Origin: Escherichia coli
Lineage (GTDB): Bacteria; Pseudomonadota; Gammaproteobacteria; Enterobacterales; Enterobacteriaceae
DNA: 64,000 nucleotides
Reading direction: 5' to 3' (one strand)
NCBI RefSeq assembly: GCF_002854065.1
Contig: NZ_CP024147.1
How positions within the stretch are numbered: the stretch's first letter is position 1; each line of letters begins with the position of its first letter. The notes below the pieces were generated by a model. The model saw only the letters and a program-made list of their open reading frames with translations. It was not told where the DNA came from and did no database searches. The translations under genes and the position numbers were made by a program. Of the stretch, positions 2,746 to 46,278 are shown in pieces.

Positions 2746-4190
2746 TATGGTCTTTCTATTAATTTACTGTGGGATACAGCATTGATGTCATCTACAACCA
2801 TCTGGAATGTCGGTTGGCGTCCTTCAAAGCGTGCGCGTTCCGCGACGTAATCGTGGTGGAGGTCGAGAATATCTTTTGGCAATGGAACGGCTCCGGCTTC
2901 CAGTACGCGTATCGCGCCGGTGTTGTCACGGACCGGAAGAATATTGCCCGCGTTGCAGGCGGCTGGCGCAAACGGCACATCCAGTACGCCCGCTTCAAAT
3001 GCCAGCACCGTACCGCGCGCAATATCACCATTACCCAGTTCGAACACTTTATTCAGTACCGCGCGAACCTCGCTCTTAATCAGTTCAATTTCCAGTTCAA
3101 CCGCAGGGCACGGCGGGAATTTCTGCTCATTGACCATGTTGAGCATCTGGCGGGAGGCTTTCAGCCCCTGAATGTTGGCAGCGGCAGTCGGGATACCCCA
3201 GGCTTCGTGCGGACTTTTGGTGATGACTTTGGTGGCACCAGACATCCCCGCGACGGCTGCGCCCCAGGAGATAATAGCGAACGCTTTCGATTCGTCTTCC
3301 GGAAAGCCGCCCATCCACTGGTGAAACACGGTACTCAATTCATAGTCGGTATAGCCATAGCTCTGAAAGTATTCGTGTGCAAGTTCACGCAGAGACTGGA
3401 TCGCCGCAACATCCTGCGTCAGGCTGCCGACCTGGCCATAACCAACGGTGATAGATTTCACACCCTGTTCCAGTGCCAGCAAGCCTTCGATTATCGCGAT
3501 AGAGTGCGAGATAAACGGCGGGATCAGCGTACCCGTTAGTGGGCCAAACGGTTCGCGGTTGATGCGGATCCCGTGTTCTTCATACATCCCCATTAAACGG
3601 TCGCAGTACTGCCAGTCGCGGATCGATTTTTCCAGCGTTACGCGTTTGGCATACGGAATGTTGTAGGAAATGCCACCGCCTTCATAACTGGTAAAGCCGC
3701 TGGCCATTGAGATTTCAGCCAGCAGACGCGCATCTGGCGTGCCGTGGCGGATCTGTAGCGGTTTTTGCAGGGTTTCGGTGAGGCGACGGCAAGCTGCGAC
3801 ACCATGGTTAACTACCGGTAAACCGTTCAGTTTAGAGGTTCCGGCTTCGATGGATTTTTTAATCCCTACAGCCGCTTCTTCGTACCGATTCAGACGGGTA
3901 TATGCATCGATGGTGCTTGGCAGCAGATCGCACTCTTCTTGTAGTGTTTTCAGCAGTTCGATGTGTTCGTCCATCAGCGCCACACCTGCGCGCGGTTGGC
4001 TAAGGGTTTTACCTTCCTTGTCTGCTTTCAGCAGCGCAAGAGAGAAGCGTTTATGCTCAGGGATGGTTTGTTGGTATTTAACGCCATCTTCAAAGATTTC
4101 AACATCCTTGCCGGTTTCCCAGGTTTTCAGTACCTGTTGCCGCTCGGTCATGAATTCGTCATGGGTTAATTTCTTATTTCGAAGTTCCAT
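2745..4190 (-). CDS. glmE: glutamate mutase E (epsilon, catalytic) subunit
   Basis: 481 aa, MELRNKKLTHDEFMTERQQVLKTWETGKDV...; size and N-terminus match methylaspartate mutase E chain; sits between glmL and mal. Confidence 0.88.
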   Translation of the reverse strand: MELRNKKLTHDEFMTERQQVLKTWETGKDVEIFEDGVKYQQTIPEHKRFSLALLKADKEGKTLSQPRAGVALMDEHIELLKTLQEECDLLPSTIDAYTRLNRYEEAAVGIKKSIEAGTSKLNGLPVVNHGVAACRRLTETLQKPLQIRHGTPDARLLAEISMASGFTSYEGGGISYNIPYAKRVTLEKSIRDWQYCDRLMGMYEEHGIRINREPFGPLTGTLIPPFISHSIAIIEGLLALEQGVKSITVGYGQVGSLTQDVAAIQSLRELAHEYFQSYGYTDYELSTVFHQWMGGFPEDESKAFAIISWGAAVAGMSGATKVITKSPHEAWGIPTAAANIQGLKASRQMLNMVNEQKFPPCPAVELEIELIKSEVRAVLNKVFELGNGDIARGTVLAFEAGVLDVPFAPAACNAGNILPVRDNTGAIRVLEAGAVPLPKDILDLHHDYVAERARFEGRQPTFQMVVDDINAVSHSKLIERP

Positions 4191-10430: not shown

Positions 10431-11570
10431 ATGATCGATTATGAAGTATTGCGTTTTATCTGGTGGCTGCTGGTTGGCGTTCTGCTGATTGGTTTTGCAG
10501 TCACTGACGGTTTCGACATGGGGGTGGGCATGCTCACCCGTTTCCTCGGTCGTAACGACACCGAGCGTCGAATTATGATTAACTCCATCGCACCACACTG
10601 GGACGGTAACCAGGTTTGGCTGATCACCGCAGGCGGCGCACTGTTTGCTGCCTGGCCGATGGTCTATGCCGCTGCGTTTTCCGGCTTCTATGTGGCGATG
10701 ATCCTCGTGCTGGCGTCTTTGTTCTTCCGTCCGGTCGGTTTTGACTACCGCTCCAAGATTGAAGAAACCCGCTGGCGTAACATGTGGGACTGGGGCATCT
10801 TCATTGGTAGCTTCGTTCCGCCGCTGGTGATTGGTGTAGCGTTCGGTAACCTGTTGCAGGGCGTACCGTTCAACGTTGATGAATATCTGCGTCTGTACTA
10901 CACCGGTAACTTCTTCCAGTTGCTTAACCCGTTCGGCCTGCTGGCAGGCGTGGTGAGCGTAGGGATGATCATTACTCAGGGCGCGACTTATCTGCAGATG
11001 CGTACCGTGGGCGAACTGCACCTGCGTACCCGTGCAACGGCTCAGGTGGCGGCACTGGTGACACTGGTCTGCTTCGCACTAGCTGGCGTATGGGTGATGT
11101 ACGGTATCGATGGTTATGTCGTGAAATCGACAATGGACCATTACGCAGCCTCTAACCCGCTGAATAAAGAAGTGGTTCGTGAAGCTGGCGCATGGCTGGT
11201 TAACTTCAACAACACGCCAATTCTGTGGGCTATTCCGGCACTGGGTGTGGTTCTGCCGCTGCTGACCATCCTGACTGCACGTATGGATAAAGCCGCGTGG
11301 GCGTTTGTGTTCTCCTCCCTGACGCTGGCCTGCATCATCCTGACTGCCGGTATCGCAATGTTCCCGTTTGTGATGCCGTCCAGCACCATGATGAACGCAA
11401 GTCTGACAATGTGGGATGCAACTTCCAGCCAGCTGACACTTAACGTCATGACTTGGGTTGCGGTGGTTCTGGTACCGATCATTCTGCTCTACACCGCCTG
11501 GTGTTACTGGAAAATGTTCGGTCGTATCACCAAAGAAGATATTGAACGTAACACCCACTCTCTGTACTAA
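10431..11570 (+). CDS. cydB: cytochrome bd-I ubiquinol oxidase subunit II
   Basis: 379-aa polytopic membrane ORF immediately after cydA. Confidence 0.97.
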   Translation: MIDYEVLRFIWWLLVGVLLIGFAVTDGFDMGVGMLTRFLGRNDTERRIMINSIAPHWDGNQVWLITAGGALFAAWPMVYAAAFSGFYVAMILVLASLFFRPVGFDYRSKIEETRWRNMWDWGIFIGSFVPPLVIGVAFGNLLQGVPFNVDEYLRLYYTGNFFQLLNPFGLLAGVVSVGMIITQGATYLQMRTVGELHLRTRATAQVAALVTLVCFALAGVWVMYGIDGYVVKSTMDHYAASNPLNKEVVREAGAWLVNFNNTPILWAIPALGVVLPLLTILTARMDKAAWAFVFSSLTLACIILTAGIAMFPFVMPSSTMMNASLTMWDATSSQLTLNVMTWVAVVLVPIILLYTAWCYWKMFGRITKEDIERNTHSLY

Positions 11571-11584
11571 GTAAGGAGCTAAAA

Positions 11585-11698
11585 ATGTGGTATTTCGCAT
11601 GGATTCTGGGAACGCTTCTTGCCTGTTCGTTTGGGGTAATCACCGCGCTGGCGCTTGAGCACGTCGAATCAGGCAAAGCCGGTCAAGAAGACATCTGA
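11585..11698 (+). CDS. cydX: cytochrome bd-I small subunit CydX (37 aa)
   Basis: atg tgg tat ttc gca tgg... = MWYFAWILGTLLACSFGVITALALEHVESGKAGQEDI; too short for the ORF track. Confidence 0.9.
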   Translation: MWYFAWILGTLLACSFGVITALALEHVESGKAGQEDI

Positions 11699-11991
11699 TG
11701 AGTAAGATTATCGCAACCTTGTATGCGGTAATGGACAAGCGCCCCCTGCGGGCGCTTTCCTTCGTGATGGCGCTTCTGTTAGCAGGATGTATGTTTTGGG
11801 ACCCATCTCGTTTTGCCGCGAAGACCAGTGAACTGGAAATCTGGCATGGTTTATTGCTGATGTGGGCCGTCTGTGCTGGTGTGATTCACGGCGTGGGCTT
11901 TCGTCCGCAGAAGGTTCTTTGGCAAGGGATTTTTTGCCCATTGCTTGCCGATATTGTTCTCATTGTCGGGCTGATTTTCTTCTTCTTTTAA
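11698..11991 (+). CDS. ybgE: cyd operon inner membrane protein YbgE
   Basis: 97 aa, MSKIIATLYAVMDKRPLRALSFVMALLLAGC...; start overlaps cydX stop. Confidence 0.9.
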   Translation: MSKIIATLYAVMDKRPLRALSFVMALLLAGCMFWDPSRFAAKTSELEIWHGLLLMWAVCAGVIHGVGFRPQKVLWQGIFCPLLADIVLIVGLIFFFF

Positions 11992-12012
11992 ATCAGAATT
12001 CTCTTTAAAAAA

Positions 12013-12042
12013 TTATGGGCCGCTCCAGGCCCATAAATTTTT
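12013..12042 (+). terminator. rho-independent terminator after ybgE
   Basis: Hairpin ttatgggcc-gctcca-ggcccataa followed by a T-run. Confidence 0.6.
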
Positions 12043-12140
12043 ACGCTCCCTTAACTTGCCCTCATTCCCAAACCTCAATCGCGCGCGTATAGTAGCAGCG
12101 TTTAAAAGCTCTAACTTTTGTTGCATTACCGGGATGTAAA

Positions 12141-13234
<1,094 letters not shown>

Positions 13235-13237
13235 GCC

Positions 13238-13666
13238 ATGGCCAGAGCGCGTGGACGAGGTCGTCGCGATCTCAAGTCCGAAATCAACATTGTACCGTTG
13301 CTGGACGTACTGCTGGTGCTGTTGCTGATCTTTATGGCGACAGCGCCCATCATCACCCAGAGCGTGGAGGTCGATCTGCCAGACGCTACTGAATCACAGG
13401 CGGTGAGCAGTAACGATAATCCGCCAGTGATTGTTGAAGTGTCTGGTATTGGTCAGTACACCGTGGTGGTTGAGAAAGATCGCCTGGAGCGTTTACCACC
13501 AGAGCAGGTGGTGGCGGAAGTGTCCAGCCGTTTCAAGGCCAACCCGAAAACGGTCTTTCTGATCGGTGGCGCAAAAGATGTGCCTTACGATGAAATAATT
13601 AAAGCACTGAACTTGTTACATAGTGCGGGTGTGAAATCGGTTGGTTTAATGACGCAGCCTATCTAA
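13238..13666 (+). CDS. tolR: Tol-Pal system protein TolR
   Basis: 142 aa, MARARGRGRRDLKSEINIVPLLDVLLVLLLIF... Confidence 0.97.
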   Translation: MARARGRGRRDLKSEINIVPLLDVLLVLLLIFMATAPIITQSVEVDLPDATESQAVSSNDNPPVIVEVSGIGQYTVVVEKDRLERLPPEQVVAEVSSRFKANPKTVFLIGGAKDVPYDEIIKALNLLHSAGVKSVGLMTQPI

Positions 13667-13730
13667 ACATCTGCGTTTCCCTTGCTTGAAAGAGAGCGGG
13701 TAACAGGCGAACAGTTTTTGGAAACCGAGA

Positions 13731-15026
13731 GTGTCAAAGGCAACCGAACAAAACGACAAGCTCAAGCGGGCGATAATTATTTCAGCAGTGCTGCATGTCA
13801 TCTTATTTGCGGCGCTGATCTGGAGTTCGTTCGATGAGAATATAGAAGCTTCAGCTGGAGGCGGCGGTGGTTCGTCCATCGACGCTGTCATGGTTGATTC
13901 AGGTGCGGTAGTTGAGCAGTACAAACGCATGCAAAGCCAGGAATCAAGCGCGAAGCGTTCTGATGAGCAGCGCAAGATGAAGGAACAGCAGGCTGCTGAA
14001 GAACTGCGTGAGAAACAAGCGGCTGAACAGGAACGCCTGAAGCAACTTGAGAAAGAGCGGTTAGCTGCTCAGGAACAGAAAAAGCAGGCTGAAGAAGCCG
14101 CAAAACAGGCCGAGTTAAAGCAGAAGCAAGCGGAAGAGGCGGCAGCGAAAGCGGCGGCAGATGCTAAAGCGAAGGCCGAAGCGGATGCTAAAGCTGCGGA
14201 AGATGCAGCGAAGAAAGCGGCTGCAGATGCGAAGAAAAAAGCAGAAGCAGAAGCCGCCAAAGCCGCAGCCGAAGCGCAGAAAAAAACCGAGGCAGCAGCT
14301 GCGGCGCTGAAGAAGAAAGCGGAAGCGGCAGAAGCAGCTGCAGCTGAAGCAAGAAAGAAAGCGGCAACTGAAGCTGCTGAAAAAGCCAAGGCAGAAGCTG
14401 AGAAGAAAGCGGCTGCTGAAAAGGCTGCAGCTGATAAGAAAGCGGCAGCAGAGAAAGCTGCAGCCGACAAAAAAGCAGCAGAAAAAGCGGCTGCAGAAAA
14501 GGCAGCAGCTGATAAGAAAGCAGCGGCAGAAAAAGCCGCCGCAGACAAAAAAGCGGCAGCTGCAAAAGCAGCAGCTGCAAAAGCAGCAGCTGCAAAAGCA
14601 GCAGCTGAAAAAGCCGCTGCAGCAAAAGCTGCCGCAGAGGCAGATGATATTTTCGGTGAGCTAAGCTCTGGTAAGAATGCACCGAAAACGGGGGGAGGGG
14701 CGAAAGGGAACAATGCTTCGCCTGCCGGGAGTGGTAATACTAAAAACAATGGCGCATCAGGGGCCGATATCAATAACTATGCCGGGCAGATTAAATCTGC
14801 TATCGAAAGTAAGTTCTATGACGCATCGTCCTATGCAGGCAAAACCTGTACGCTGCGCATAAAACTGGCACCCGATGGTATGTTACTGGATATCAAACCT
14901 GAAGGTGGCGATCCCGCACTTTGTCAGGCTGCGTTGGCAGCAGCTAAACTTGCGAAGATCCCGAAACCACCAAGCCAGGCAGTATATGAAGTGTTCAAAA
15001 ACGCGCCATTGGACTTCAAACCGTAA
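13731..15026 (+). CDS. tolA: Tol-Pal system protein TolA (431 aa)
   Basis: GTG start, MSKATEQNDKLKRAIIISAVLHVILFAALIW...; long Ala/Lys-rich domain II encoded by tandem repeats; C-terminal domain III intact. Confidence 0.95.
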   Translation: MSKATEQNDKLKRAIIISAVLHVILFAALIWSSFDENIEASAGGGGGSSIDAVMVDSGAVVEQYKRMQSQESSAKRSDEQRKMKEQQAAEELREKQAAEQERLKQLEKERLAAQEQKKQAEEAAKQAELKQKQAEEAAAKAAADAKAKAEADAKAAEDAAKKAAADAKKKAEAEAAKAAAEAQKKTEAAAAALKKKAEAAEAAAAEARKKAATEAAEKAKAEAEKKAAAEKAAADKKAAAEKAAADKKAAEKAAAEKAAADKKAAAEKAAADKKAAAAKAAAAKAAAAKAAAEKAAAAKAAAEADDIFGELSSGKNAPKTGGGAKGNNASPAGSGNTKNNGASGADINNYAGQIKSAIESKFYDASSYAGKTCTLRIKLAPDGMLLDIKPEGGDPALCQAALAAAKLAKIPKPPSQAVYEVFKNAPLDFKP

Positions 15027-15158
15027 TCGCGATGCTGACTGTTCCGACGGTCAACATCAGGCACCGGTTGCCACGGGGTTCTGGTAGTTTTGTGTATTTT
15101 AGTTTGTTAACATTCTGCTAAATTATCGTGGGCCATCGGTCCAGATAAGGGAGATATG

Positions 15159-16451
15159 ATGAAGCAGGCATTACGAGTAGCATTTGGTTTTCTCATATTG
15201 TGGGCATCAGTTCTTCATGCTGAAGTCCGCATTGTGATCGACAGCGGTGTAGATTCCGGTCGTCCTATTGGAGTTGTTCCTTTCCAGTGGGCGGGCCCTG
15301 GTGCGGCACCTGAAGATATTGGCGGCATCGTTGCTGCCGACTTGCGTAACAGCGGTAAATTTAATCCGTTAGATCGCGCTCGTCTGCCACAGCAGCCGGG
15401 TAGTGCGCAGGAAGTACAACCAGCTGCATGGTCCGCGCTGGGTATTGACGCTGTAGTTGTCGGTCAGGTCACTCCGAATCCGGATGGTTCTTACAATGTT
15501 GCTTATCAACTTGTTGACACTGGCGGCGCACCGGGTACTGTACTTGCTCAGAACTCGTACAAAGTGAACAAGCAGTGGCTGCGTTATGCTGGTCATACCG
15601 CCAGTGATGAAGTGTTTGAAAAACTGACCGGTATTAAAGGTGCGTTCCGTACCCGTATTGCCTACGTTGTTCAGACCAACGGCGGTCAGTTCCCGTATGA
15701 ACTGCGCGTATCTGACTATGACGGTTACAACCAGTTTGTCGTTCACCGTTCACCACAGCCGCTGATGTCCCCGGCGTGGTCACCAGACGGTTCTAAACTG
15801 GCTTATGTGACCTTCGAAAGCGGTCGTTCCGCGCTGGTTATCCAAACGCTGGCAAACGGCGCTGTACGTCAGGTGGCTTCATTCCCGCGTCACAACGGTG
15901 CGCCTGCATTCTCGCCAGACGGCAGCAAACTGGCATTCGCCTTGTCGAAAACCGGTAGCCTGAACCTGTACGTAATGGATTTGGCTTCTGGTCAGATCCG
16001 CCAGGTGACTGATGGTCGCAGTAACAATACCGAACCGACCTGGTTCCCGGACAGCCAGAACCTGGCATTTACTTCTGACCAGGCCGGTCGTCCACAGGTT
16101 TATAAAGTGAATATCAACGGCGGTGCGCCACAACGTATTACCTGGGAAGGTTCGCAGAACCAGGATGCGGATGTCAGCAGCGACGGTAAATTTATGGTAA
16201 TGGTCAGCTCCAACGGTGGGCAGCAGCACATTGCCAAACAAGATCTGGCAACGGGAGGCGTACAAGTTCTGTCGTCCACGTTCCTGGATGAAACGCCAAG
16301 TCTGGCACCTAACGGCACTATGGTAATCTACAGCTCTTCTCAGGGGATGGGATCCGTGCTGAATTTGGTTTCTACAGATGGGCGTTTCAAAGCGCGTCTT
16401 CCGGCAACTGATGGACAGGTCAAATTCCCTGCCTGGTCGCCGTATCTGTGA
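15159..16451 (+). CDS. tolB: Tol-Pal system periplasmic protein TolB
   Basis: 430 aa from second [33 protein letters not shown]... Confidence 0.97.
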
Positions 16452-17972: not shown

Positions 17973-18048
17973 GGGTCGTTAGCTCAGTTGGTAGAGCAGT
18001 TGACTTTTAATCAATTGGTCGCAGGTTCGAATCCTGCACGACCCACCA
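17973..18048 (+). tRNA. lysT: tRNA-Lys (anticodon UUU)
   Basis: 76-nt gggtcgttagctcagttggtagagcagttgacttttaatcaattggtcgcaggttcgaatcctgcacgacccacca with encoded CCA. Confidence 0.97.
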
Positions 18049-18083
18049 CTAACCTAGTTAGTTGTAGTATCCAGCGTAGTATC

Positions 18084-18159
18084 GGGTGATTAGCTCAGCT
18101 GGGAGAGCACCTCCCTTACAAGGAGGGGGTCGGCGGTTCGATCCCGTCATCACCCACCA
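18084..18159 (+). tRNA. valT: tRNA-Val (anticodon UAC)
   Basis: 76-nt gggtgattagctcagctgggagagcacctcccttacaaggagggggtcggcggttcgatcccgtcatcacccacca. Confidence 0.97.
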
Positions 18160-18161
18160 CC

Positions 18162-18237
18162 GGGTCGTTAGCTCAGTTGGTAGAGCAGTTGACTTTTAAT
18201 CAATTGGTCGCAGGTTCGAATCCTGCACGACCCACCA
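18162..18237 (+). tRNA. lysW: tRNA-Lys (UUU)
   Basis: Identical copy of the lysT sequence. Confidence 0.97.
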
Positions 18238-18288
18238 CTAATTACGGTGGGTTCGGTGGAAGTAGTTTGTAGTATCCAGCGCAGTATC

Positions 18289-18364
18289 GGGTGATTAGCT
18301 CAGCTGGGAGAGCACCTCCCTTACAAGGAGGGGGTCGGCGGTTCGAACCCGTCATCACCCACCA
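18289..18364 (+). tRNA. valZ: tRNA-Val (UAC), T-loop variant
   Basis: Same as valT except gttcgaaccc instead of gttcgatccc in the T-loop. Confidence 0.95.
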
Positions 18365-18367
18365 CTC

Positions 18368-18443
18368 GGGTCGTTAGCTCAGTTGGTAGAGCAGTTGACT
18401 TTTAATCAATTGGTCGCAGGTTCGAATCCTGCACGACCCACCA
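18368..18443 (+). tRNA. lysY: tRNA-Lys (UUU)
   Basis: Identical copy. Confidence 0.97.
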
Positions 18444-18495
18444 GTTTTAACATCAAACTCAGATGTTAAGCGTGAAGGATAACGTTGCGCCAGCA

Positions 18496-18541
18496 ACGGC
18501 CCGTAGGGCGAGCGAAGCGAGTCATCCTGCACGACCCACCA
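18496..18541 (+). repeat. tRNA-Lys 3'-end remnant repeat, copy 1
   Basis: acggcccgtagggcgagcgaagcgagtc followed by atcctgcacgacccacca, the exact last 18 nt of tRNA-Lys; no 5' half. Confidence 0.7.
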
Positions 18542-18589
18542 ATCTTAAAGATTGGCCCCGAGTAAAAATCTTTCAGGTAACACCCGTAT

Positions 18590-18665
18590 GGGTCGTTAGC
18601 TCAGTTGGTAGAGCAGTTGACTTTTAATCAATTGGTCGCAGGTTCGAATCCTGCACGACCCACCA
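18590..18665 (+). tRNA. lysZ: tRNA-Lys (UUU)
   Basis: Identical copy. Confidence 0.97.
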
Positions 18666-18698
18666 TCCTGAATGATTAAAGCAGCATAATCCCGCAAG

Positions 18699-18774
18699 GG
18701 GTCGTTAGCTCAGTTGGTAGAGCAGTTGACTTTTAATCAATTGGTCGCAGGTTCGAATCCTGCACGACCCACCA
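18699..18774 (+). tRNA. lysQ: tRNA-Lys (UUU)
   Basis: Identical copy; last gene of the array. Confidence 0.97.
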
Positions 18775-27095: not shown

Positions 27096-28142
27096 TTACA
27101 CTCCGGATTCGCGAAAATGGATATCGCTGACTGCGCGCAAACGCTCTGCTGCCTGTTCTGCGGTCAGGTCTCGCTGGGTCTCTGCCAGCATTTCATAACC
27201 AACCATAAATTTACGTACGGTGGCGGAGCGCAACAGAGGCGGATAAAAGTGCGCGTGCAGCTGCCAGTGTTGATTCTCTTCGCCATTAAATGGCGCGCCG
27301 TGCCAGCCCATAGAGTAGGGGAAGGAGCACTGGAAGAGGTTGTCATAACGACTGGTCAGCTTTTTCAACGCCAGCGCCAGATCGCTGCGCTGGGCGTCGG
27401 TCAAATCGGTGATCCGTAAAACGTGGGCTTTGGGCATAAGTAGCGTTTCGAACGGCCAGGCAGCCCAGTAAGGCACAACTGCTAACCAGTGTTCGGTTTC
27501 GACAACGGTACGGCTACCGTCTGCCAGCTCGCGCTGAACATAATCCACCAGCATTGGTGATTTCTGCTCGGCAAAAAATTCTTTTTGCAGGCGGTCTTCG
27601 CGCTCAGCTTCGTTAGGCAGGAAGCTATTTGCCCAAACCTGTCCGTGCGGATGCGGGTTAGAGCAGCCCATCGCCGCGCCTTTGTTTTCAAAGACCTGCA
27701 CCCATGGGTACGTTTTCCCCAGTTCTGCGGTTTGCTCCTGCCAGGTTTTGACGATTTCCGTCAATGCCGCAACACTGAGCTCTGGCAGCGTTTTACTGTG
27801 ATCCGGTGAAAAGCAGATCACCCGGCTGGTACCGCGCGCGCTCTGGCAACGCATCAGCGGATCGTTGCTTTCTGGCGCATCTGGCGTGTCAGACATCAAG
27901 GCCGCAAAGTCATTAGTGAAAACGTAAGTCCCGGTGTAATCGGGGTTTTTATCGCCTGTCACCCGCACATTACCTGCGCAGAGGAAGCAATCTGGATCGT
28001 GCGCAGGTAACACCTGTTTGGCTGGCGTTTCCTGCGCCCCCTGCCAGGGGCGCTTAGCGCGGTGCGGTGAAACCAGAATCCATTGCCCGGTGAGCGGGTT
28101 GTAGCGGCGATGTGGATGATCAACGGGATTAAATTGCGTCAT
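27096..28142 (-). CDS. galT: galactose-1-phosphate uridylyltransferase
   Basis: 348 aa, [35 protein letters not shown]... Confidence 0.97.
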
Positions 28143-32202: not shown

Positions 32203-32976
32203 ATGGCTCGTAAATGGTTGAACTTGTTTGCCGGGGCGGCACTCTCTTTCGCTGTTGCTGGCAATGCACTGGCAGATGAAGGGAAAATCACGGTGTTCGC
32301 CGCCGCATCACTGACTAACGCAATGCAGGACATTGCTACGCAGTATAAAAAAGAGAAAGGCGTGGATGTGGTTTCTTCTTTCGCTTCGTCATCTACTCTC
32401 GCCCGTCAGATTGAAGCGGGTGCGCCTGCGGATCTGTTTATTTCTGCCGATCAGAAATGGATGGATTATGCGGTTGATAAAAAAGCGATCGATACAGCTA
32501 CGCGTCAGACACTGCTCGGCAATAGCCTGGTCGTTGTAGCACCGAAAGCCAGCGAGCAGAAAGATTTCATCATCGACAGCAAAACTAACTGGACTTCGCT
32601 GCTGAATGGCGGTCGCCTCGCGGTTGGCGATCCGGAACATGTCCCTGCTGGCATTTATGCAAAAGAAGCACTGCAAAAACTGGGCGCATGGGATACGCTC
32701 TCCCCGAAACTGGCTCCGGCGGAAGATGTTCGTGGCGCGCTGGCGTTGGTCGAACGCAATGAAGCGCCGTTGGGCATTGTTTACGGTTCTGACGCAGTTG
32801 CCAGCAAAGGGGTAAAAGTGGTTGCCACCTTCCCGGAAGATTCACATAAAAAAGTGGAATATCCGGTTGCTGTTGTGGAAGGGCATAACAATGCGACAGT
32901 GAAAGCATTTTATGATTATCTGAAGGGACCGCAGGCAGCGGAAATCTTTAAACGTTACGGATTTACAACCAAGTAA
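32203..32976 (+). CDS. modA: molybdate ABC transporter periplasmic binding protein
   Basis: 257 aa with signal peptide. Confidence 0.97.
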   Translation: MARKWLNLFAGAALSFAVAGNALADEGKITVFAAASLTNAMQDIATQYKKEKGVDVVSSFASSSTLARQIEAGAPADLFISADQKWMDYAVDKKAIDTATRQTLLGNSLVVVAPKASEQKDFIIDSKTNWTSLLNGGRLAVGDPEHVPAGIYAKEALQKLGAWDTLSPKLAPAEDVRGALALVERNEAPLGIVYGSDAVASKGVKVVATFPEDSHKKVEYPVAVVEGHNNATVKAFYDYLKGPQAAEIFKRYGFTTK

Positions 32977-35663: not shown

Positions 35664-36695
<1,032 letters not shown>

Positions 36696-36735
36696 CCGCT
36701 GATTTACCCGGCGCAGTCTCTCCTGCGCCGGTGTA

Positions 36736-37689
36736 TTAACCTATCTCCTGTAACGCATGTCTCTGGCGTTCGACGATATTGGTCCACAAATTGTCTTTAT
36801 CGTCAGTCCACAAATTAATCAGCAAGGCAAAAAAGCGTTCAGCTGCCGGAGAAAGCACGGCATCTTTGCGGCGAATAATCCCCAATGTCCGACGTATAAC
36901 GGGTTCCACCAGTGGGATACCAATAATCGAAGAATAGGGCGCATGGGGCATTGCCAGACCAGGAAGCGCTGAAATCCCCAGTCCTGCCTCCACCAGTCCT
37001 AATGACGTCGAAAGATGACGCACTTCGTAAAACCAGTCCAGCTTCCAGGGCTTGTCGGCTAGCTGTTGTTCTATCAACAGTCGGTTGCCGCTGGAGGAGC
37101 GTACGCCAATCATTTTGTAACCCACTAACTCCTGCCATTCTACAAGCTGCTTTTTGGCCAATGGATGGTCACGCCGACAGGCCAGCACGAACGGCTCGTT
37201 GACCAGTGGGCTAAAATCAATGGATGAATTTGTGACGTTGTTCATGTTTATGCCAAAGTCTGATTCGTTACATAGCACCGATTCCATGCAATTATTCGTG
37301 CCTTGTTCCAGAATCCGCACTTTAATATTGGGATACAGCTCATTAAATTTACCGATTGCCAGCGGTAAAAAATAAAATACTGCGGTCGGAATACACGCTA
37401 ACGTCACCATACCACGATGATAAGCATTCATATCACGAATATTAAAAAGCGTTTCATCGAATTTCTTTATTAATTCCCGCGCCTCCGGGAGCAACCTTTT
37501 TCCTGCTTTTGTTAACGTAACCTTGCGAGTTGTACGCTCAAATAGTTGAATATGTAAATCTTCCTCCATCTTTTTTATTCTTCGCGTTAATGCAGGTTGC
37601 GTAATGTTGAGTAATTTAGCGGCATTGTTAAATGAACTGGACTCTGCCAGTATGACAAATGCCTTCATACTTGATAATTCATGCTTCAT
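36736..37689 (-). CDS. ybhD: LysR-family transcriptional regulator YbhD
   Basis: 317 aa from MKHELSSMKAFVILAESSSFNNAAKLLNITQPALTRRIKKMEEDL... (HTH); track ORF trimmed by 21 codons. Confidence 0.93.
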   Translation of the reverse strand: MKHELSSMKAFVILAESSSFNNAAKLLNITQPALTRRIKKMEEDLHIQLFERTTRKVTLTKAGKRLLPEARELIKKFDETLFNIRDMNAYHRGMVTLACIPTAVFYFLPLAIGKFNELYPNIKVRILEQGTNNCMESVLCNESDFGINMNNVTNSSIDFSPLVNEPFVLACRRDHPLAKKQLVEWQELVGYKMIGVRSSSGNRLLIEQQLADKPWKLDWFYEVRHLSTSLGLVEAGLGISALPGLAMPHAPYSSIIGIPLVEPVIRRTLGIIRRKDAVLSPAAERFFALLINLWTDDKDNLWTNIVERQRHALQEIG

Positions 37690-37872
37690 TATTACTCCGG
37701 AAAATGGAAGCGTTGATTTTGGGTGGCTGGCCGTTAAAAATTTTAACTGCATTTAGCCAACTTAAATTAATGAAAAAATGTTATTAATCGTTGAGCTAAA
37801 GTCATTAGAGATGCTTTGCCCTTAATGTAACCATATCGCAATAAGTTATATTTTTAAATTGAGGGCATTATT

Positions 37873-38925
37873 ATGAAAAAAATACCCTGCGTGATGATGC
37901 GAGGTGGAACCTCGAGGGGCGCGTTCCTGTTAGCGGAACATTTACCCGAAGATCAAACGCAGCGCGATAAAATATTGATGGCAATTATGGGTTCCGGTAA
38001 CGATCTGGAAATTGACGGTATTGGCGGCGGTAATCCGCTGACCAGTAAAGTCGCCATTATTAGCCGTTCCAGCGATCCGCGTGCTGATGTCGATTATCTG
38101 TTTGCTCAAGTTATCGTCCATGAGCAACGTGTCGATACCACGCCTAACTGCGGCAATATGCTGTCTGGCGTTGGGGCATTCGCCATTGAAAATGGTTTGA
38201 TTGCAGCGACTTCGCCAGTTACCCGCGTACGTATCCGCAACGTCAATACGGGTACGTTTATCGAAGCTGATGTGCAAACACCAAATGGTGTTGTCGAGTA
38301 CGAGGGTAGCGCCAGAATTGACGGCGTACCGGGTACTGCCGCACCGGTTGCGCTCACTTTCCTGAATGCCGCTGGAACGAAAACCGGAAAAGTTTTCCCG
38401 ACTGATAATCAGATTGATTATTTTGACGATGTCCCGGTGACCTGTATCGATATGGCGATGCCAGTCGTCATTATTCCGGCTGAATATCTGGGAAAAACAG
38501 GCTATGAATTACCGGCGGAACTGGATGCCGACAAAGCATTATTAGCCCGCATTGAATCTATCCGTCTACAAGCGGGTAAAGCAATGGGCTTAGGTGATGT
38601 CAGTAATATGGTTATCCCTAAACCTGTGCTTATTTCTCCAGCGCAGAAAGGCGGGGCAATTAATGTGCGTTATTTTATGCCGCATTCTTGCCATCGCGCG
38701 TTGGCGATAACCGGTGCTATTGCTATTTCCAGTAGTTGTGCATTGGAAGGCACCGTCACCCGACAAATCATCCCTTCTGTAGGATATGGCAATATCAATA
38801 TTGAACCCCCCAGTGGTGCGCTCGACGTTCATTTAAGTAATGAAGGTCAGGATGCCACGACGTTACGCTCATCTGTTATTCGGACGACCAGAAAAATATT
38901 TTCCGGTGAAGTTTATCTTCCCTGA
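37873..38925 (+). CDS. ybhH: PrpF/AcnD-accessory family isomerase-like protein YbhH
   Basis: 350 aa, MKKIPCVMMRGGTSRGAFLL... Confidence 0.93.
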   Translation: MKKIPCVMMRGGTSRGAFLLAEHLPEDQTQRDKILMAIMGSGNDLEIDGIGGGNPLTSKVAIISRSSDPRADVDYLFAQVIVHEQRVDTTPNCGNMLSGVGAFAIENGLIAATSPVTRVRIRNVNTGTFIEADVQTPNGVVEYEGSARIDGVPGTAAPVALTFLNAAGTKTGKVFPTDNQIDYFDDVPVTCIDMAMPVVIIPAEYLGKTGYELPAELDADKALLARIESIRLQAGKAMGLGDVSNMVIPKPVLISPAQKGGAINVRYFMPHSCHRALAITGAIAISSSCALEGTVTRQIIPSVGYGNINIEPPSGALDVHLSNEGQDATTLRSSVIRTTRKIFSGEVYLP

Positions 38926-39000
38926 AAAGATTCGTTGTCAGGATAAGGACAATCAATAAAGGACTTCTGTATGAGTCATACAGAAAGAACAGGATTTTAA

Positions 39001-40434
39001 ATGAATAAGAAATCGTTATGGAAGCTAATTCTGATATTAGCGATCCCATGTATTATTGGCTTTATGCCAGCTCCGGCAGGATTAAGCGAACTGGCGTGGG
39101 TGCTTTTTGGTATTTACCTGGCGGCCATTGTGGGGCTGGTTATCAAGCCTTTCCCGGAACCTGTCGTACTGTTAATTGCCGTTGCTGCCTCCATGGTGGT
39201 GGTCGGTAACTTATCCGACGGTGCGTTTAAAACCACCGCCGTATTAAGCGGTTACTCTTCAGGTACTACCTGGCTGGTGTTCTCGGCGTTTACCTTAAGC
39301 GCCGCATTTGTGACCACCGGTTTAGGTAAACGTATTGCCTATCTGCTGATTGGTAAAATCGGTAACACCACGCTGGGTCTGGGTTACGTTACGGTATTCC
39401 TCGATCTGGTACTGGCTCCGGCAACACCGTCTAACACCGCGCGTGCGGGCGGCATTGTGTTACCGATCATCAACAGCGTGGCGGTAGCTTTGGGGTCCGA
39501 ACCGGAAAAAAGTCCGCGTCGTGTCGGACATTACCTGATGATGTCCATTTACATGGTCACCAAAACCACCAGCTATATGTTCTTTACCGCAATGGCGGGG
39601 AACATTCTGGCGCTGAAAATGATCAACGACATTCTGCACCTGCAAATTAGCTGGGGTGGATGGGCGCTGGCCGCCGGATTGCCGGGCATCATTATGCTGC
39701 TGGTCACCCCGCTGGTGATTTACACCATGTATCCACCAGAAATTAAGAAGGTGGATAACAAAACCATCGCTAAAGCGGGCCTTGCCGAACTGGGACCGAT
39801 GAAAATCCGCGAAAAAATGCTGCTCGGTGTCTTTGTGCTGGCGCTGCTGGGCTGGATTTTCAGTAAGTCTCTGGGGGTTGATGAATCCACCGTGGCAATC
39901 GTTGTTATGGCGACCATGCTGCTGCTGGGTATCGTTACCTGGGAAGACGTGGTTAAAAATAAAGGCGGCTGGAATACCTTAATCTGGTACGGCGGTATTA
40001 TCGGCTTAAGCTCCTTATTATCGAAAGTTAAATTTTTCGAATGGTTAGCTGAAGTCTTTAAAAATAACCTGGCATTTGATGGTCACGGTAACGTTGCTTT
40101 CTTCGTTATTATTTTCCTCAGCATCATCGTGCGTTATTTCTTCGCTTCCGGTAGTGCCTATATCGTTGCTATGTTACCTGTATTTGCCATGCTGGCGAAC
40201 GTCTCCGGCGCACCGTTAATGTTAACCGCGCTGGCACTGTTGTTCTCCAACTCCTATGGCGGCATGGTTACTCACTATGGCGGCGCGGCAGGTCCGGTCA
40301 TCTTTGGCGTGGGTTACAACGATATTAAATCCTGGTGGTTGGTCGGTGCGGTACTGACGATATTAACCTTCCTGGTGCATATCACCCTCGGCGTATGGTG
40401 GTGGAATATGCTGATCGGCTGGAACATGCTGTAA
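39001..40434 (+). CDS. ybhI: DASS-family anion transporter YbhI
   Basis: 477-aa polytopic membrane protein. Confidence 0.93.
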   Translation: MNKKSLWKLILILAIPCIIGFMPAPAGLSELAWVLFGIYLAAIVGLVIKPFPEPVVLLIAVAASMVVVGNLSDGAFKTTAVLSGYSSGTTWLVFSAFTLSAAFVTTGLGKRIAYLLIGKIGNTTLGLGYVTVFLDLVLAPATPSNTARAGGIVLPIINSVAVALGSEPEKSPRRVGHYLMMSIYMVTKTTSYMFFTAMAGNILALKMINDILHLQISWGGWALAAGLPGIIMLLVTPLVIYTMYPPEIKKVDNKTIAKAGLAELGPMKIREKMLLGVFVLALLGWIFSKSLGVDESTVAIVVMATMLLLGIVTWEDVVKNKGGWNTLIWYGGIIGLSSLLSKVKFFEWLAEVFKNNLAFDGHGNVAFFVIIFLSIIVRYFFASGSAYIVAMLPVFAMLANVSGAPLMLTALALLFSNSYGGMVTHYGGAAGPVIFGVGYNDIKSWWLVGAVLTILTFLVHITLGVWWWNMLIGWNML

Positions 40435-42878: not shown

Positions 42879-42895
42879 AAAGCACCATGTGAATG

Positions 42896-43003
42896 TAGGT
42901 CGCATTCGGCACTTATTGTCGGATGCGATGCTGGCGCATCTTATCCGACCTACAAATCGCATCGAACCGTAGGCCGGATAAGGCGTTTACGCCGCATCCA
43001 GCA
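42896..43003. repeat. BIME-like cluster of REP elements
   Basis: gtaggtcgcattcggc...gtcggatgcgatgctggcgcatcttatccgacctac and gtaggccggataaggcgtttacgccgcatccagc between convergent ybhJ and ybhC. Confidence 0.75.
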
Positions 43004-43018
43004 AATAGTTAATAGCTC

Positions 43019-44302
43019 TTACTTCTTCGCCTCTGCAACCACTTTGCTACCCACGCCGCGGTTATTGTATTCCCACATGCGGTTGTAGTTAGTGTCATTC
43101 AGATTGCGCTGTATTTCGTCGCTATCGTCAACGCTGCCGGTATTACCCGCAAACGGACGATTAGAGATCACCGCATCGCCCCACGGTTTAACCGTGTTAA
43201 AACCTTCGTTGATGGCGCTATCACGGATCACCACCTGACCGTTGGTATTGGCATCAACATCCAGCGAGCGGCCCAGTTGCGCCACGCCATCACCGGAAGC
43301 ATTGAAACGGCTGTTTACGGCGAGGAAACCGTAATAGATGTTGGACAGCGTAGCCGGTGCAAACACATACGCTTCTTGCTGAGTACGTGAGTTCACCACG
43401 CGGAATTCGGTGTTATCGAACACCACTGCACCGCGACCAGAAACGATATCCACATCCCCTTCAATATAGCTGTTGGTCACCAGCGTACGCGGCTGACGAT
43501 TCGTTTCCAGACGGTTCTGCACACCGCTGTTGGTGACAAAGAAGGTGTTCTGACGACCGAGAATGTTAACGTTGTTAATCTGTACCTGGTCACCGTCAGT
43601 ACGCAGTGCCACCGCCGGATGGTTACCCGCATCTACGCTATCACCCAGCGTGTTTTCGATGGTCAGGTTTTGCAGTTGCAGGCCATTATTTTGTGACCAG
43701 AAGACCGCAGAACACAGAACACCGATACTGTCGCTGCGTTTGCTCTGGCAGCTATCGTACATATACCACGCTGGTTTACCTGGCATATATTTGCCGCGCG
43801 GGTTGACGTCGTGACGCCAGTCGGCAGGGCTCATGCCCCCATCAAGGGAAAGCCCAATCTTCACATCAATCGGTTTTTCACCTGTACCGTACAGAGTAAT
43901 TCCACCTGGAGCAGCAGGGACATACACCGTTCCCTGATACTCACCAGGCATCACGGCAATATACTGGCGCTTGTTAGTGCGCTTGATAATTGCCGCATCT
44001 ACCGCCGCCTGAATCGTGGTATGCGTTACACCTTGAGTACCCGCCGGGCCGACAACAAAGTCAGGTTGCGCAGGCAGGGTTATCGGGGACGGATTCCACG
44101 CTGCAGCACCTGGTGTCAGGGATGCAAAATAGTGTTGAGCATCGAAATTCTGCGCTTCTTTTGCCGACAGAATCGGGCGAGAAGAGGTACCAGGCGCAGT
44201 TTGATCAGAAGGACGTTGATCGGGTGGTGTTGAGCTACAGGCGGTCAGCGTCACGCCAAAAGCCAATGCCAGCGCCAGACGGGAAACTGAAAATGTGTTC
44301 AC
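43019..44302 (-). CDS. ybhC: outer-membrane lipoprotein YbhC (pectinesterase-like acyl-CoA thioesterase)
   Basis: 427 aa, lipoprotein signal MNTFSVSRLALALAFGVTLTACSS. Confidence 0.93.
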   Translation of the reverse strand: MNTFSVSRLALALAFGVTLTACSSTPPDQRPSDQTAPGTSSRPILSAKEAQNFDAQHYFASLTPGAAAWNPSPITLPAQPDFVVGPAGTQGVTHTTIQAAVDAAIIKRTNKRQYIAVMPGEYQGTVYVPAAPGGITLYGTGEKPIDVKIGLSLDGGMSPADWRHDVNPRGKYMPGKPAWYMYDSCQSKRSDSIGVLCSAVFWSQNNGLQLQNLTIENTLGDSVDAGNHPAVALRTDGDQVQINNVNILGRQNTFFVTNSGVQNRLETNRQPRTLVTNSYIEGDVDIVSGRGAVVFDNTEFRVVNSRTQQEAYVFAPATLSNIYYGFLAVNSRFNASGDGVAQLGRSLDVDANTNGQVVIRDSAINEGFNTVKPWGDAVISNRPFAGNTGSVDDSDEIQRNLNDTNYNRMWEYNNRGVGSKVVAEAKK

Positions 44303-44348
44303 AGGTTGCTCCGGGCTATGAAATAGAAAAATGAATCCGTTGAAGCCT

Positions 44349-44363
44349 GCTTTTTTATACTAA
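44349..44363. other. phage lambda attachment site attB core, unoccupied
   Basis: cctgcttttttatactaacttgagcg contains the 15-bp core GCTTTTTTATACTAA with recalled flanks; ybhC and ybhB are 151 bp apart with nothing inserted. Confidence 0.85.
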
Positions 44364-44453
44364 CTTGAGCGAAACGGGAAGGTAAAAAGACAAAAAGTTG
44401 TTTTTAATACCTTTAAGTGATACCAGATAGCATTGCGCCATCTGGCAGAGTGA

Positions 44454-44930
44454 TTAACTAAACATCGCGGTAATCGATGCGCTTGCCAGAGAGTGGAAAT
44501 GAACGTTAAACCCGACCATCGCGCCGCTGGCTCCTTTATCGACATCAATACGCTCTACATCCAGCGCGTGAACGGTAAAAATGTAGCGATGGGTTTCGCC
44601 TTTCGGCGGCGCTGCGCCATCGTATCCGGTTTTACCAAAATCGGTACGCGTCTGCAAAACGCCGTCTGGCATTGCTACCAGACCAGAGCCAAACCCTTGC
44701 GGTAATACGCGGGTATCAGCGGGTAAATTAACAACTACCCAGTGCCACCAGCCGGAGCCGGTTGGCGCATCCGGGTCGTAGCAGGTGACAACAAAACTTT
44801 TCGTTCCCGCAGGAACATCATCCCACGCCAGATGCGGTGAAATATTATCGCCATCGTAACCCATGCCGTTAAAGACATGACGATGCGGCAACTTATCGCC
44901 ATCGCGCAGATCGTTACTGATGAGTTTCAT
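44454..44930 (-). CDS. ybhB: PEBP-family protein YbhB
   Basis: 158 aa, MKLISNDLRDGDKLPHRHVFNGMGYDGDNISPHLAWDDVPAGTKSFVVTCYDPDAPTGSGWWHW... Confidence 0.95.
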   Translation of the reverse strand: MKLISNDLRDGDKLPHRHVFNGMGYDGDNISPHLAWDDVPAGTKSFVVTCYDPDAPTGSGWWHWVVVNLPADTRVLPQGFGSGLVAMPDGVLQTRTDFGKTGYDGAAPPKGETHRYIFTVHALDVERIDVDKGASGAMVGFNVHFHSLASASITAMFS

Positions 44931-44988
44931 GAACCCTCCTTTCTAGTTTGCAGAAAGTGTAGCCAGAAACCCTCACGCTGACTTCCCG

Positions 44989-46278
44989 TTATTGGCAAAA
45001 AAATGTTTCATCCTGTACCGCGCGGTTAACCGCTGCGGTCAGACGCTGCAACTGTTGCGGGAGAATAATATAGGGCGGCATCAGGTAAATCAGTTTGCCA
45101 AAAGGCCGGATCCAGACACCCTGTTCGACAAAGAATTTTTGCAGCGCCGCCATATTCACCGGACGAGTGGTTTCGACCACACCGATTGCCCCCAGTACGC
45201 GCACATCGGCAACCATTTCGGCATCACGGGCTGGTGCCAGTTGCTCGCGCAGCTGTACTTCAATAGCCGCCACCTGCTGCTGCCAGTCGCCAGATTCGAG
45301 AATCGCCAGGCTGGCGTTTGCTGCCGCGCAGGCCAGCGGATTACCCATAAAAGTTGGCCCATGCATAAAGCAGCCGGCTTCGCCGTTACTGATGGTTTCC
45401 GCAACCTCGCGCGTGGTGAGCGTGGCGGAAAGGGTCATTGTGCCGCCGGTTAAGGCTTTACCGAGGCACAAAATGTCCGGCGCGATTTCTGCATATTCAC
45501 AGGCAAACAGTTTGCCGGTACGACCAAATCCGGTGGCGATCTCGTCGGCAATCAGCAAGATACCTTCGCGATCGCACATTTTGCGGATTCGTTTTAACCA
45601 TTCCGGATGGTACATGCGCATCCCGCCTGCGCCCTGGACAATCGGTTCAATGATCACCGCCGCGATTTCATGACGATGCGCCGCCATCAGGCGGGCAAAG
45701 CCCACCATATCGCGCTCATCCCATTCACCATCCATGCGGCTTTGCGGGGCGGGAGCAAACAAGTTTTCTGGCAGATAGCCTTTCCACAGGCTGTGCATTG
45801 AGTTGTCCGGATCGCACACCGACATCGCGCCAAAGGTATCGCCATGATAACCATTGCGGAAGGTCAGAAAACGCTGGCGCGCTTCGCCTTTGGCCTGCCA
45901 GTACTGCAACGCCATTTTCATCGCCACTTCCACCGCTACGGAGCCGGAGTCCGCGAGAAAAACGCATTCCAGCGGTTGCGGCGTCATCGCCACCAGTTTG
46001 CGGCACAGCTCAATGGCTGGCGCATGGGTGATACCGCCAAACATCACATGCGACATGGCATCAATTTGCGACTTCATCGCCGCATTAAGCTGCGGGTGAT
46101 TGTAACCGTGGATCGCCGCCCACCAGGACGACATACCGTCAACCAGGCGTCTGCCGTCAGACAAAATTAGCTCGCAACCTTCGGCGCTCGCCACCGGATA
46201 AACCGGTAGCGGGGAGGTCATGGATGTGTATGGGTGCCAGATATGGCGTTGGTCAAAGGCAAGATCGTCCGTTGTCAT
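44989..46278 (-). CDS. bioA: adenosylmethionine-8-amino-7-oxononanoate aminotransferase
   Basis: 429 aa from [20 protein letters not shown]...; track ORF trimmed by 37 codons. Confidence 0.97.

Follow-up and report, generated by a model that had tools for sequence, protein, structure and literature searches.

The 151-bp gap between ybhC and ybhB in an Escherichia coli chromosome raises the question of whether it houses the primary attachment site of phage lambda and, if so, whether that site is presently empty or occupied. The whole stretch of DNA analyzed here, 64,000 nucleotides of contig NZ_CP024147.1 (RefSeq assembly GCF_002854065.1), is referred to below as the window. A pattern search of the 64-kb window located the 15-bp lambda common core, GCTTTTTTATACTAA, on the plus strand with 0 mismatches, and this was the single match even when up to 2 mismatches were allowed. 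The minimal 21-bp attB, CTGCTTTTTTATACTAACTTG, was also matched exactly and only once, and it was found in 0 of 100 dinucleotide-preserving shuffles. Reading of window positions 44100-44640 gave ...gttgaagcctGCTTTTTTATACTAActtgagcgaaacggg... around the core.

The original prediction, made from the letters of this stretch, had placed an intact core between known flanking letters in this gap. The core is indeed exact, at 44349-44363, and the flanks had been given correctly: the letters read cctGC...AActtgagcg. The predicted flank string, cctgc...cttgagcg, is thus right, but it spans 44346-44371, and the end assigned to it, 44370, was one base short. The 151-bp spacing also proved correct: the ORF list leaves 44303-44453 between the two genes, and their K-12 counterparts b0772 and b0773 are spaced identically. 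The ORFs follow one another in the order 427 amino acids (ybhC), 158 amino acids (ybhB), bioA-like (minus strand) and bioB-like (plus strand). As judged from the ORFs, colinearity with K-12 and the literature, the site occupies the ybhC-ybhB intergenic region, with gal on one side and bio on the other. In lysogens, ybhC, on the gal side, corresponds to the attL side and ybhB, on the bio side, to the attR side. Two published sources also locate lambda attB in the ybhC/ybhB gap (PMC9580842, PMC3467070).

Table 1. Features of the ybhC-ybhB intergenic region and its flanking genes (window coordinates)
Feature	Position	Strand	Basis or remark
Minimal attB (B-O-B'), CTGCTTTTTTATACTAACTTG	44347..44367	+	Exact match; same as K-12 and as the attB part of primer attB-petF (PMC2831311)
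Common core, GCTTTTTTATACTAA, shared with lambda attP	44349..44363	+	Equals misc_recomb feature 27724-27738 of NC_001416
Overlap region O, TTTATAC, 7 bp, bounded by the cleavage points of the top and bottom strands (presumed placement)	44354..44360	+	Letters read directly
B core-type Int binding site (predicted), CTGCTTTTT	44347..44355	+	Letters read directly
B' core-type Int binding site (predicted), CAAGTTAGT	44359..44367	-	Letters read directly
ybhC, outer-membrane lipoprotein / putative acyl-CoA thioesterase	43019..44302	-	ORF; syntenic with K-12 b0772
ybhB, putative kinase inhibitor, PEBP family	44454..44930	-	ORF; K-12 b0773
Two stable stem-loops	44421-44447 and 44379-44413	- (ybhB/ybhC sense)	Between the ybhB stop codon and attB; RNA fold

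As can be seen from Table 1, the exact 21-mer contains two predicted core-type sites, B and B', in inverted orientation, which together would form the minimal site. We assigned B on the basis of the established core-type consensus, CAACTTNNT, and B' likewise from established knowledge; the placement of O inside the core follows our understanding of lambda Int (Landy).

We compared the site with its partner on the phage. Lambda attP is about 240 bp long and carries arm-type Int, IHF, Xis and Fis sites. In the lambda genome (NC_001416), the recombination core is annotated at 27724-27738, with Int binding sites on either side and with int and xis a short distance downstream; the letters of this region are tcgttcaGCTTTTTTATACTAAgttggcatta. 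A three-way alignment showed that all 15 core bases of lambda attP, including the 7-bp overlap TTTATAC, are identical in the window, while the window flanks are unrelated to the P and P' arms of attP, as expected when an attB is compared with an attP. Right after the core, the window has C where lambda attP has G. Thus, both the shared core and the identical TTTATAC that would mark a lambda attB are present in the window. According to the legend of Figure 1 in PMC1807965, O represents the 7 bp of identity that are required between partner sites.

Published att reagents allowed a further comparison. The attB primer attB-petF of PMC2831311 opens with the same 21-mer as the window. In Table 1 of PMC1807965, the top strand of wild-type attL reads AATGAATCCGTTGAAGCCTGCTTTTTTATACTAA followed by GTTGG..., and its bacterial arm equals window 44331-44363; the bottom strand of wild-type attR reads CCCGTTTCGCTCAAGTTAGTATAAAAAAGC followed by TGAACG..., and its bacterial arm equals window 44349-44378. 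Alignment with canonical attB, which the original prediction had named as its check, therefore revealed identity both to K-12 attB and to the published attB, attL and attR substrates.

The state of the locus in other strains was surveyed with a 701-bp query centered on the site, which was searched against 5,426 complete RefSeq E. coli genomes and matched in 5,424 of them. The site was scored as intact when a single place covered at least 80% of the query, the remaining matches being split. A chimeric query composed of the ybhC end, the core, the P' arm and the int end, also counted at a coverage of at least 80%, was used for attL. An intact (empty) site, as in the window, was present in 3,491 of the 5,426 genomes (~64%) and a lambda-type attL junction (ybhC-B-O-P'-int) in 1,912 (~35%), both percentages being affected by the biased sampling of RefSeq, which holds, for example, many O157:H7 and laboratory strains. 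The 1,912 genomes with attL nearly account for the 1,933 that matched without an intact site (5,424 minus 3,491). These proportions provide a useful baseline and agree with the known status of the locus as an island hotspot (PMC9580842).

The split matches showed where the locus is interrupted. In all 13 of the two-place split matches listed, the ybhC-side piece ended immediately beyond the core, at query position 368 (window 44367), and the sole ybhB-side piece among the matches listed, a single-place match, began with query position 350 (window 44349); the two breakpoints fall at the core. Two of the genomes, O157:H7 OK1 and A14, were inspected: genes for a tyrosine integrase and an excisionase were located directly beyond the ybhC-side junction, which aligned as B-O-P'. 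The comparison thus revealed prophages with a lambda-type int inserted exactly at the core, with B-O-P' and P-O-B' junctions.

The attL query also retrieved 15 matching places on plasmids. One of them, positions 3035-3180 of the 103-kb ECONIH4 plasmid NZ_CP026403.1, comprises 146 bp that are 99% identical to the part of the query made of the core, the P' arm and the int end; there is no annotated feature at this position.

The occupied form was analyzed in O157:H7 OK1 (NZ_CP038313.1), where a lambdoid prophage lies between ybhB and ybhC. An exact copy of the core stands at each end of this prophage, the two copies forming a direct repeat and being 38,586 bp apart, and alignment showed the attL and attR of the prophage to be exact B-O-P' and P-O-B' hybrids. 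The prophage carries terminase, portal, tail, Q, exo/bet and int/xis genes as well as effector genes nleB2, nleC, nleH1-1 and nleD; we take it to be Sp3 / CP-933K. The type III effector genes nleD, nleH1-1, nleC and nleB2 adjoin attR (10646-15317 of the examined OK1 stretch), and the integrase of this prophage is annotated as frameshifted.

One can ask whether the sequence is kept mainly for a host function, serving as the promoter or 5' leader of ybhC or as a 3'-end element of ybhB, with the phage merely exploiting it. The location of attB, which precedes the ybhC start codon by 45-61 bp and comes right after the two stable hairpins that follow ybhB (Table 1), would fit such a role, and so would the divergence from K-12, which is 0.66% in the gap (1/151) and 2.4-2.5% in the flanking genes (43/1761, mostly synonymous; 31 nucleotide and 4 amino acid differences in ybhC, 12 and 2 in ybhB). 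However, with 1 difference seen and about 3.7 expected, the conservation of the gap is not significant (Poisson probability of about 0.12), and about a third of genomes tolerate a prophage that interrupts the site. Scanning of positions 44200-44560 on both strands for promoter and terminator consensus elements identified no σ70-like promoter and no intrinsic (T-tract) terminator; an overlap of attB with a ybhC promoter is accordingly not proposed here. A scan of positions 43900-45000 against Rfam (E ≤ 1) also produced no match to any family. We consider it unlikely that host function is the main reason for the presence of this sequence; moreover, this reading is compatible with the lambda attB explanation and does not compete with it.

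The hairpin region itself (44379-44447, minus strand) has a predicted folding energy of -23.8 kcal/mol (z = -5.4), and the same fold is present in K-12. The only intergenic difference from K-12, at 44429, converts a G-C pair of the first stem to G-U, preserving the pairing. Judging from the modeled fold, the hairpins are probably 3'-end structures of ybhB that are separate from attB. That attB and the hairpins also make up a constrained host element, such as the promoter or leader of ybhC or a signal in ybhB 3'-end processing, the near-invariance of the 151 bp being due to host selection and not to small numbers, seems slightly less likely still; if this were the case, lysogeny at attB would rewire expression of ybhC.

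The next alternative is that the locus is held by a remnant, the site being an attL, an attR or another trace left by a degraded prophage. E. coli genomes often harbor cryptic lambdoid remnants, but we found no support for such a reading here. Both arms of the site are bacterial B and B' rather than P or P', the window contains one copy of the core, and ybhC and ybhB are as far apart as in K-12. When the whole window was compared by BLAST with K-12 positions 758,000-832,000, window 8471-64000 proved colinear with K-12 771,085-826,981, with small indels only, and this part of the window has no insert and no int or xis. Gene order is likewise the same as in K-12: gal-modF/E-acrZ-modABC-ybhA-pgl-ybhD-ybhH/I/J-ybhC-[attB]-ybhB-bioA-bioBFCD-uvrB. 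A prophage remnant at the site is thus extremely improbable. The statement of the original prediction that no lambdoid prophage occupies this hotspot is borne out by the same colinearity and lack of inserted DNA; "unoccupied" describes the present state of this one site, other att sites outside the 64-kb window being a separate matter.

Finally, a chance AT-rich intergenic 15-mer unrelated to lambda can be dismissed, for although one or more matches to the core turned up in 16 of 100 shuffles when 2 mismatches were allowed, and a look-alike with 3 mismatches (itself within chance expectation) occurs in the window at 32340-32354, the match at the site is exact and extends to a 21-mer that none of the 100 shuffles contained, the core is at the syntenic position within 191 bp that differ from K-12 only outside attB, and the same core is the observed prophage breakpoint in about 1,900 genomes. 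The look-alike, TCTTTTTTATACTGC, on the minus strand at the position of modA, was rejected as a chance match: with 3 mismatches, 2 matches were found and 1.7 were expected.

We conclude, with a probability of roughly 0.97, that the feature is the primary phage lambda attB (att-lambda, BOB') in its empty state in a non-K-12 E. coli chromosome. Its B and B' arms are contiguous, and ybhC and ybhB are not separated by any foreign DNA. Nothing in the sequence speaks against this conclusion. The site is a canonical unoccupied att-lambda, already known and ordinary. Binding of Int, the positions of cleavage and the competence of the site for recombination would be expected from established knowledge of lambda, competence in particular from identity to the site used experimentally.

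The steps of integration and excision are those of the established lambda mechanism. At this locus, a lambda-type tyrosine integrase and IHF would assemble on the ~240-bp attP, with IHF bending the arm-bound Int complex, and the core-binding domains of Int would then capture the bare 21-bp attB at B and B'. The top strand would be cut at the left edge of TTTATAC and the bottom strand at its right edge, 7 bp apart, and the strands would be exchanged one after the other by way of a Holliday junction. This would leave the phage between ybhC and ybhB, with attL (B-O-P') at one end and attR (P-O-B') at the other. Int together with Xis, IHF and Fis would reverse the reaction, restoring the exact sequence of the window. 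Since excision regenerates attB exactly, an empty site is the same whether it was never occupied or was precisely vacated.

Judging from the sequence of the site, the strain should be open to lysogeny by lambda or by phages with a lambda-type int, and it should accept lambda-att vectors at the standard site (CRIM, DE3 lysogenisation kits and attB-based single-copy integration). Its lineage is without the effector-bearing prophage that fills the site in O157:H7. Beyond its value as a landmark for annotation and strain engineering, the site matters little.

Several other parts of the window were compared with K-12. Segment 1-8470 has no counterpart in K-12 758,000-832,000; just before cydA, K-12 instead has sucABCD, mngR and mngAB. 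The segment is a methylaspartate-pathway accessory cluster: it carries genes for methylaspartate ammonia-lyase and glutamate (methylaspartate) mutase (glmS/glmL/glmE) along with AtuA-family and DUF4387 genes, and 1,120 of the 5,426 complete E. coli genomes contain it over its full length. At 17973-18774, there is an array of seven Lys(UUU)/Val(UAC) tRNA genes that has the gene order of K-12 lysT-valT-lysW-valZ-lysY-lysZ-lysQ, with spacers that are in total ~300 bp shorter than those of K-12. The gap between ybhJ and ybhC (42879-43018) is 140 bp in the window and 233 bp in K-12; overlap of the BLAST matches indicates that a unit of ~92 bp is present once in the window and as two adjacent copies in K-12, possibly a difference in REP/BIME copy number.

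The complete genomes closest to the window are those of E. coli strains 100416 and CUWW06. CUWW06 is 100% identical to the window over the sampled segments; however, it has an IS1B with an associated deletion that removes ybhH entirely and ybhD and ybhI in part, and the window (~36500-39100) is without this deletion. The comparison thus points to a close relative as the origin of the window rather than to CUWW06 itself.

The site itself can be set against two known systems, one occupied and one empty. In O157:H7 OK1, the bacterial arms match the window except for one SNP at 44346; unlike that genome, the window has no insert. In K-12 MG1655 (NC_000913.3), attB is located at about 807,326-807,346, between ybhC (b0772) and ybhB (b0773), and bioA and bioBFCD likewise lie beyond ybhB. 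The flanking genes of the window, diverged from those of K-12 by ~2.4%, point to a different E. coli lineage. In the gap, 150 of the 151 bases are identical to K-12, the lone SNP (44429, A in the window and G in K-12) being outside attB, and the 191 bp centered on the gap contain only one further difference, at 44469, also outside attB. The window and K-12 MG1655 thus have in common an identical 21-bp B-O-B', the 151-bp gap, the flanking genes, their orientation and the gal...bio neighborhood.
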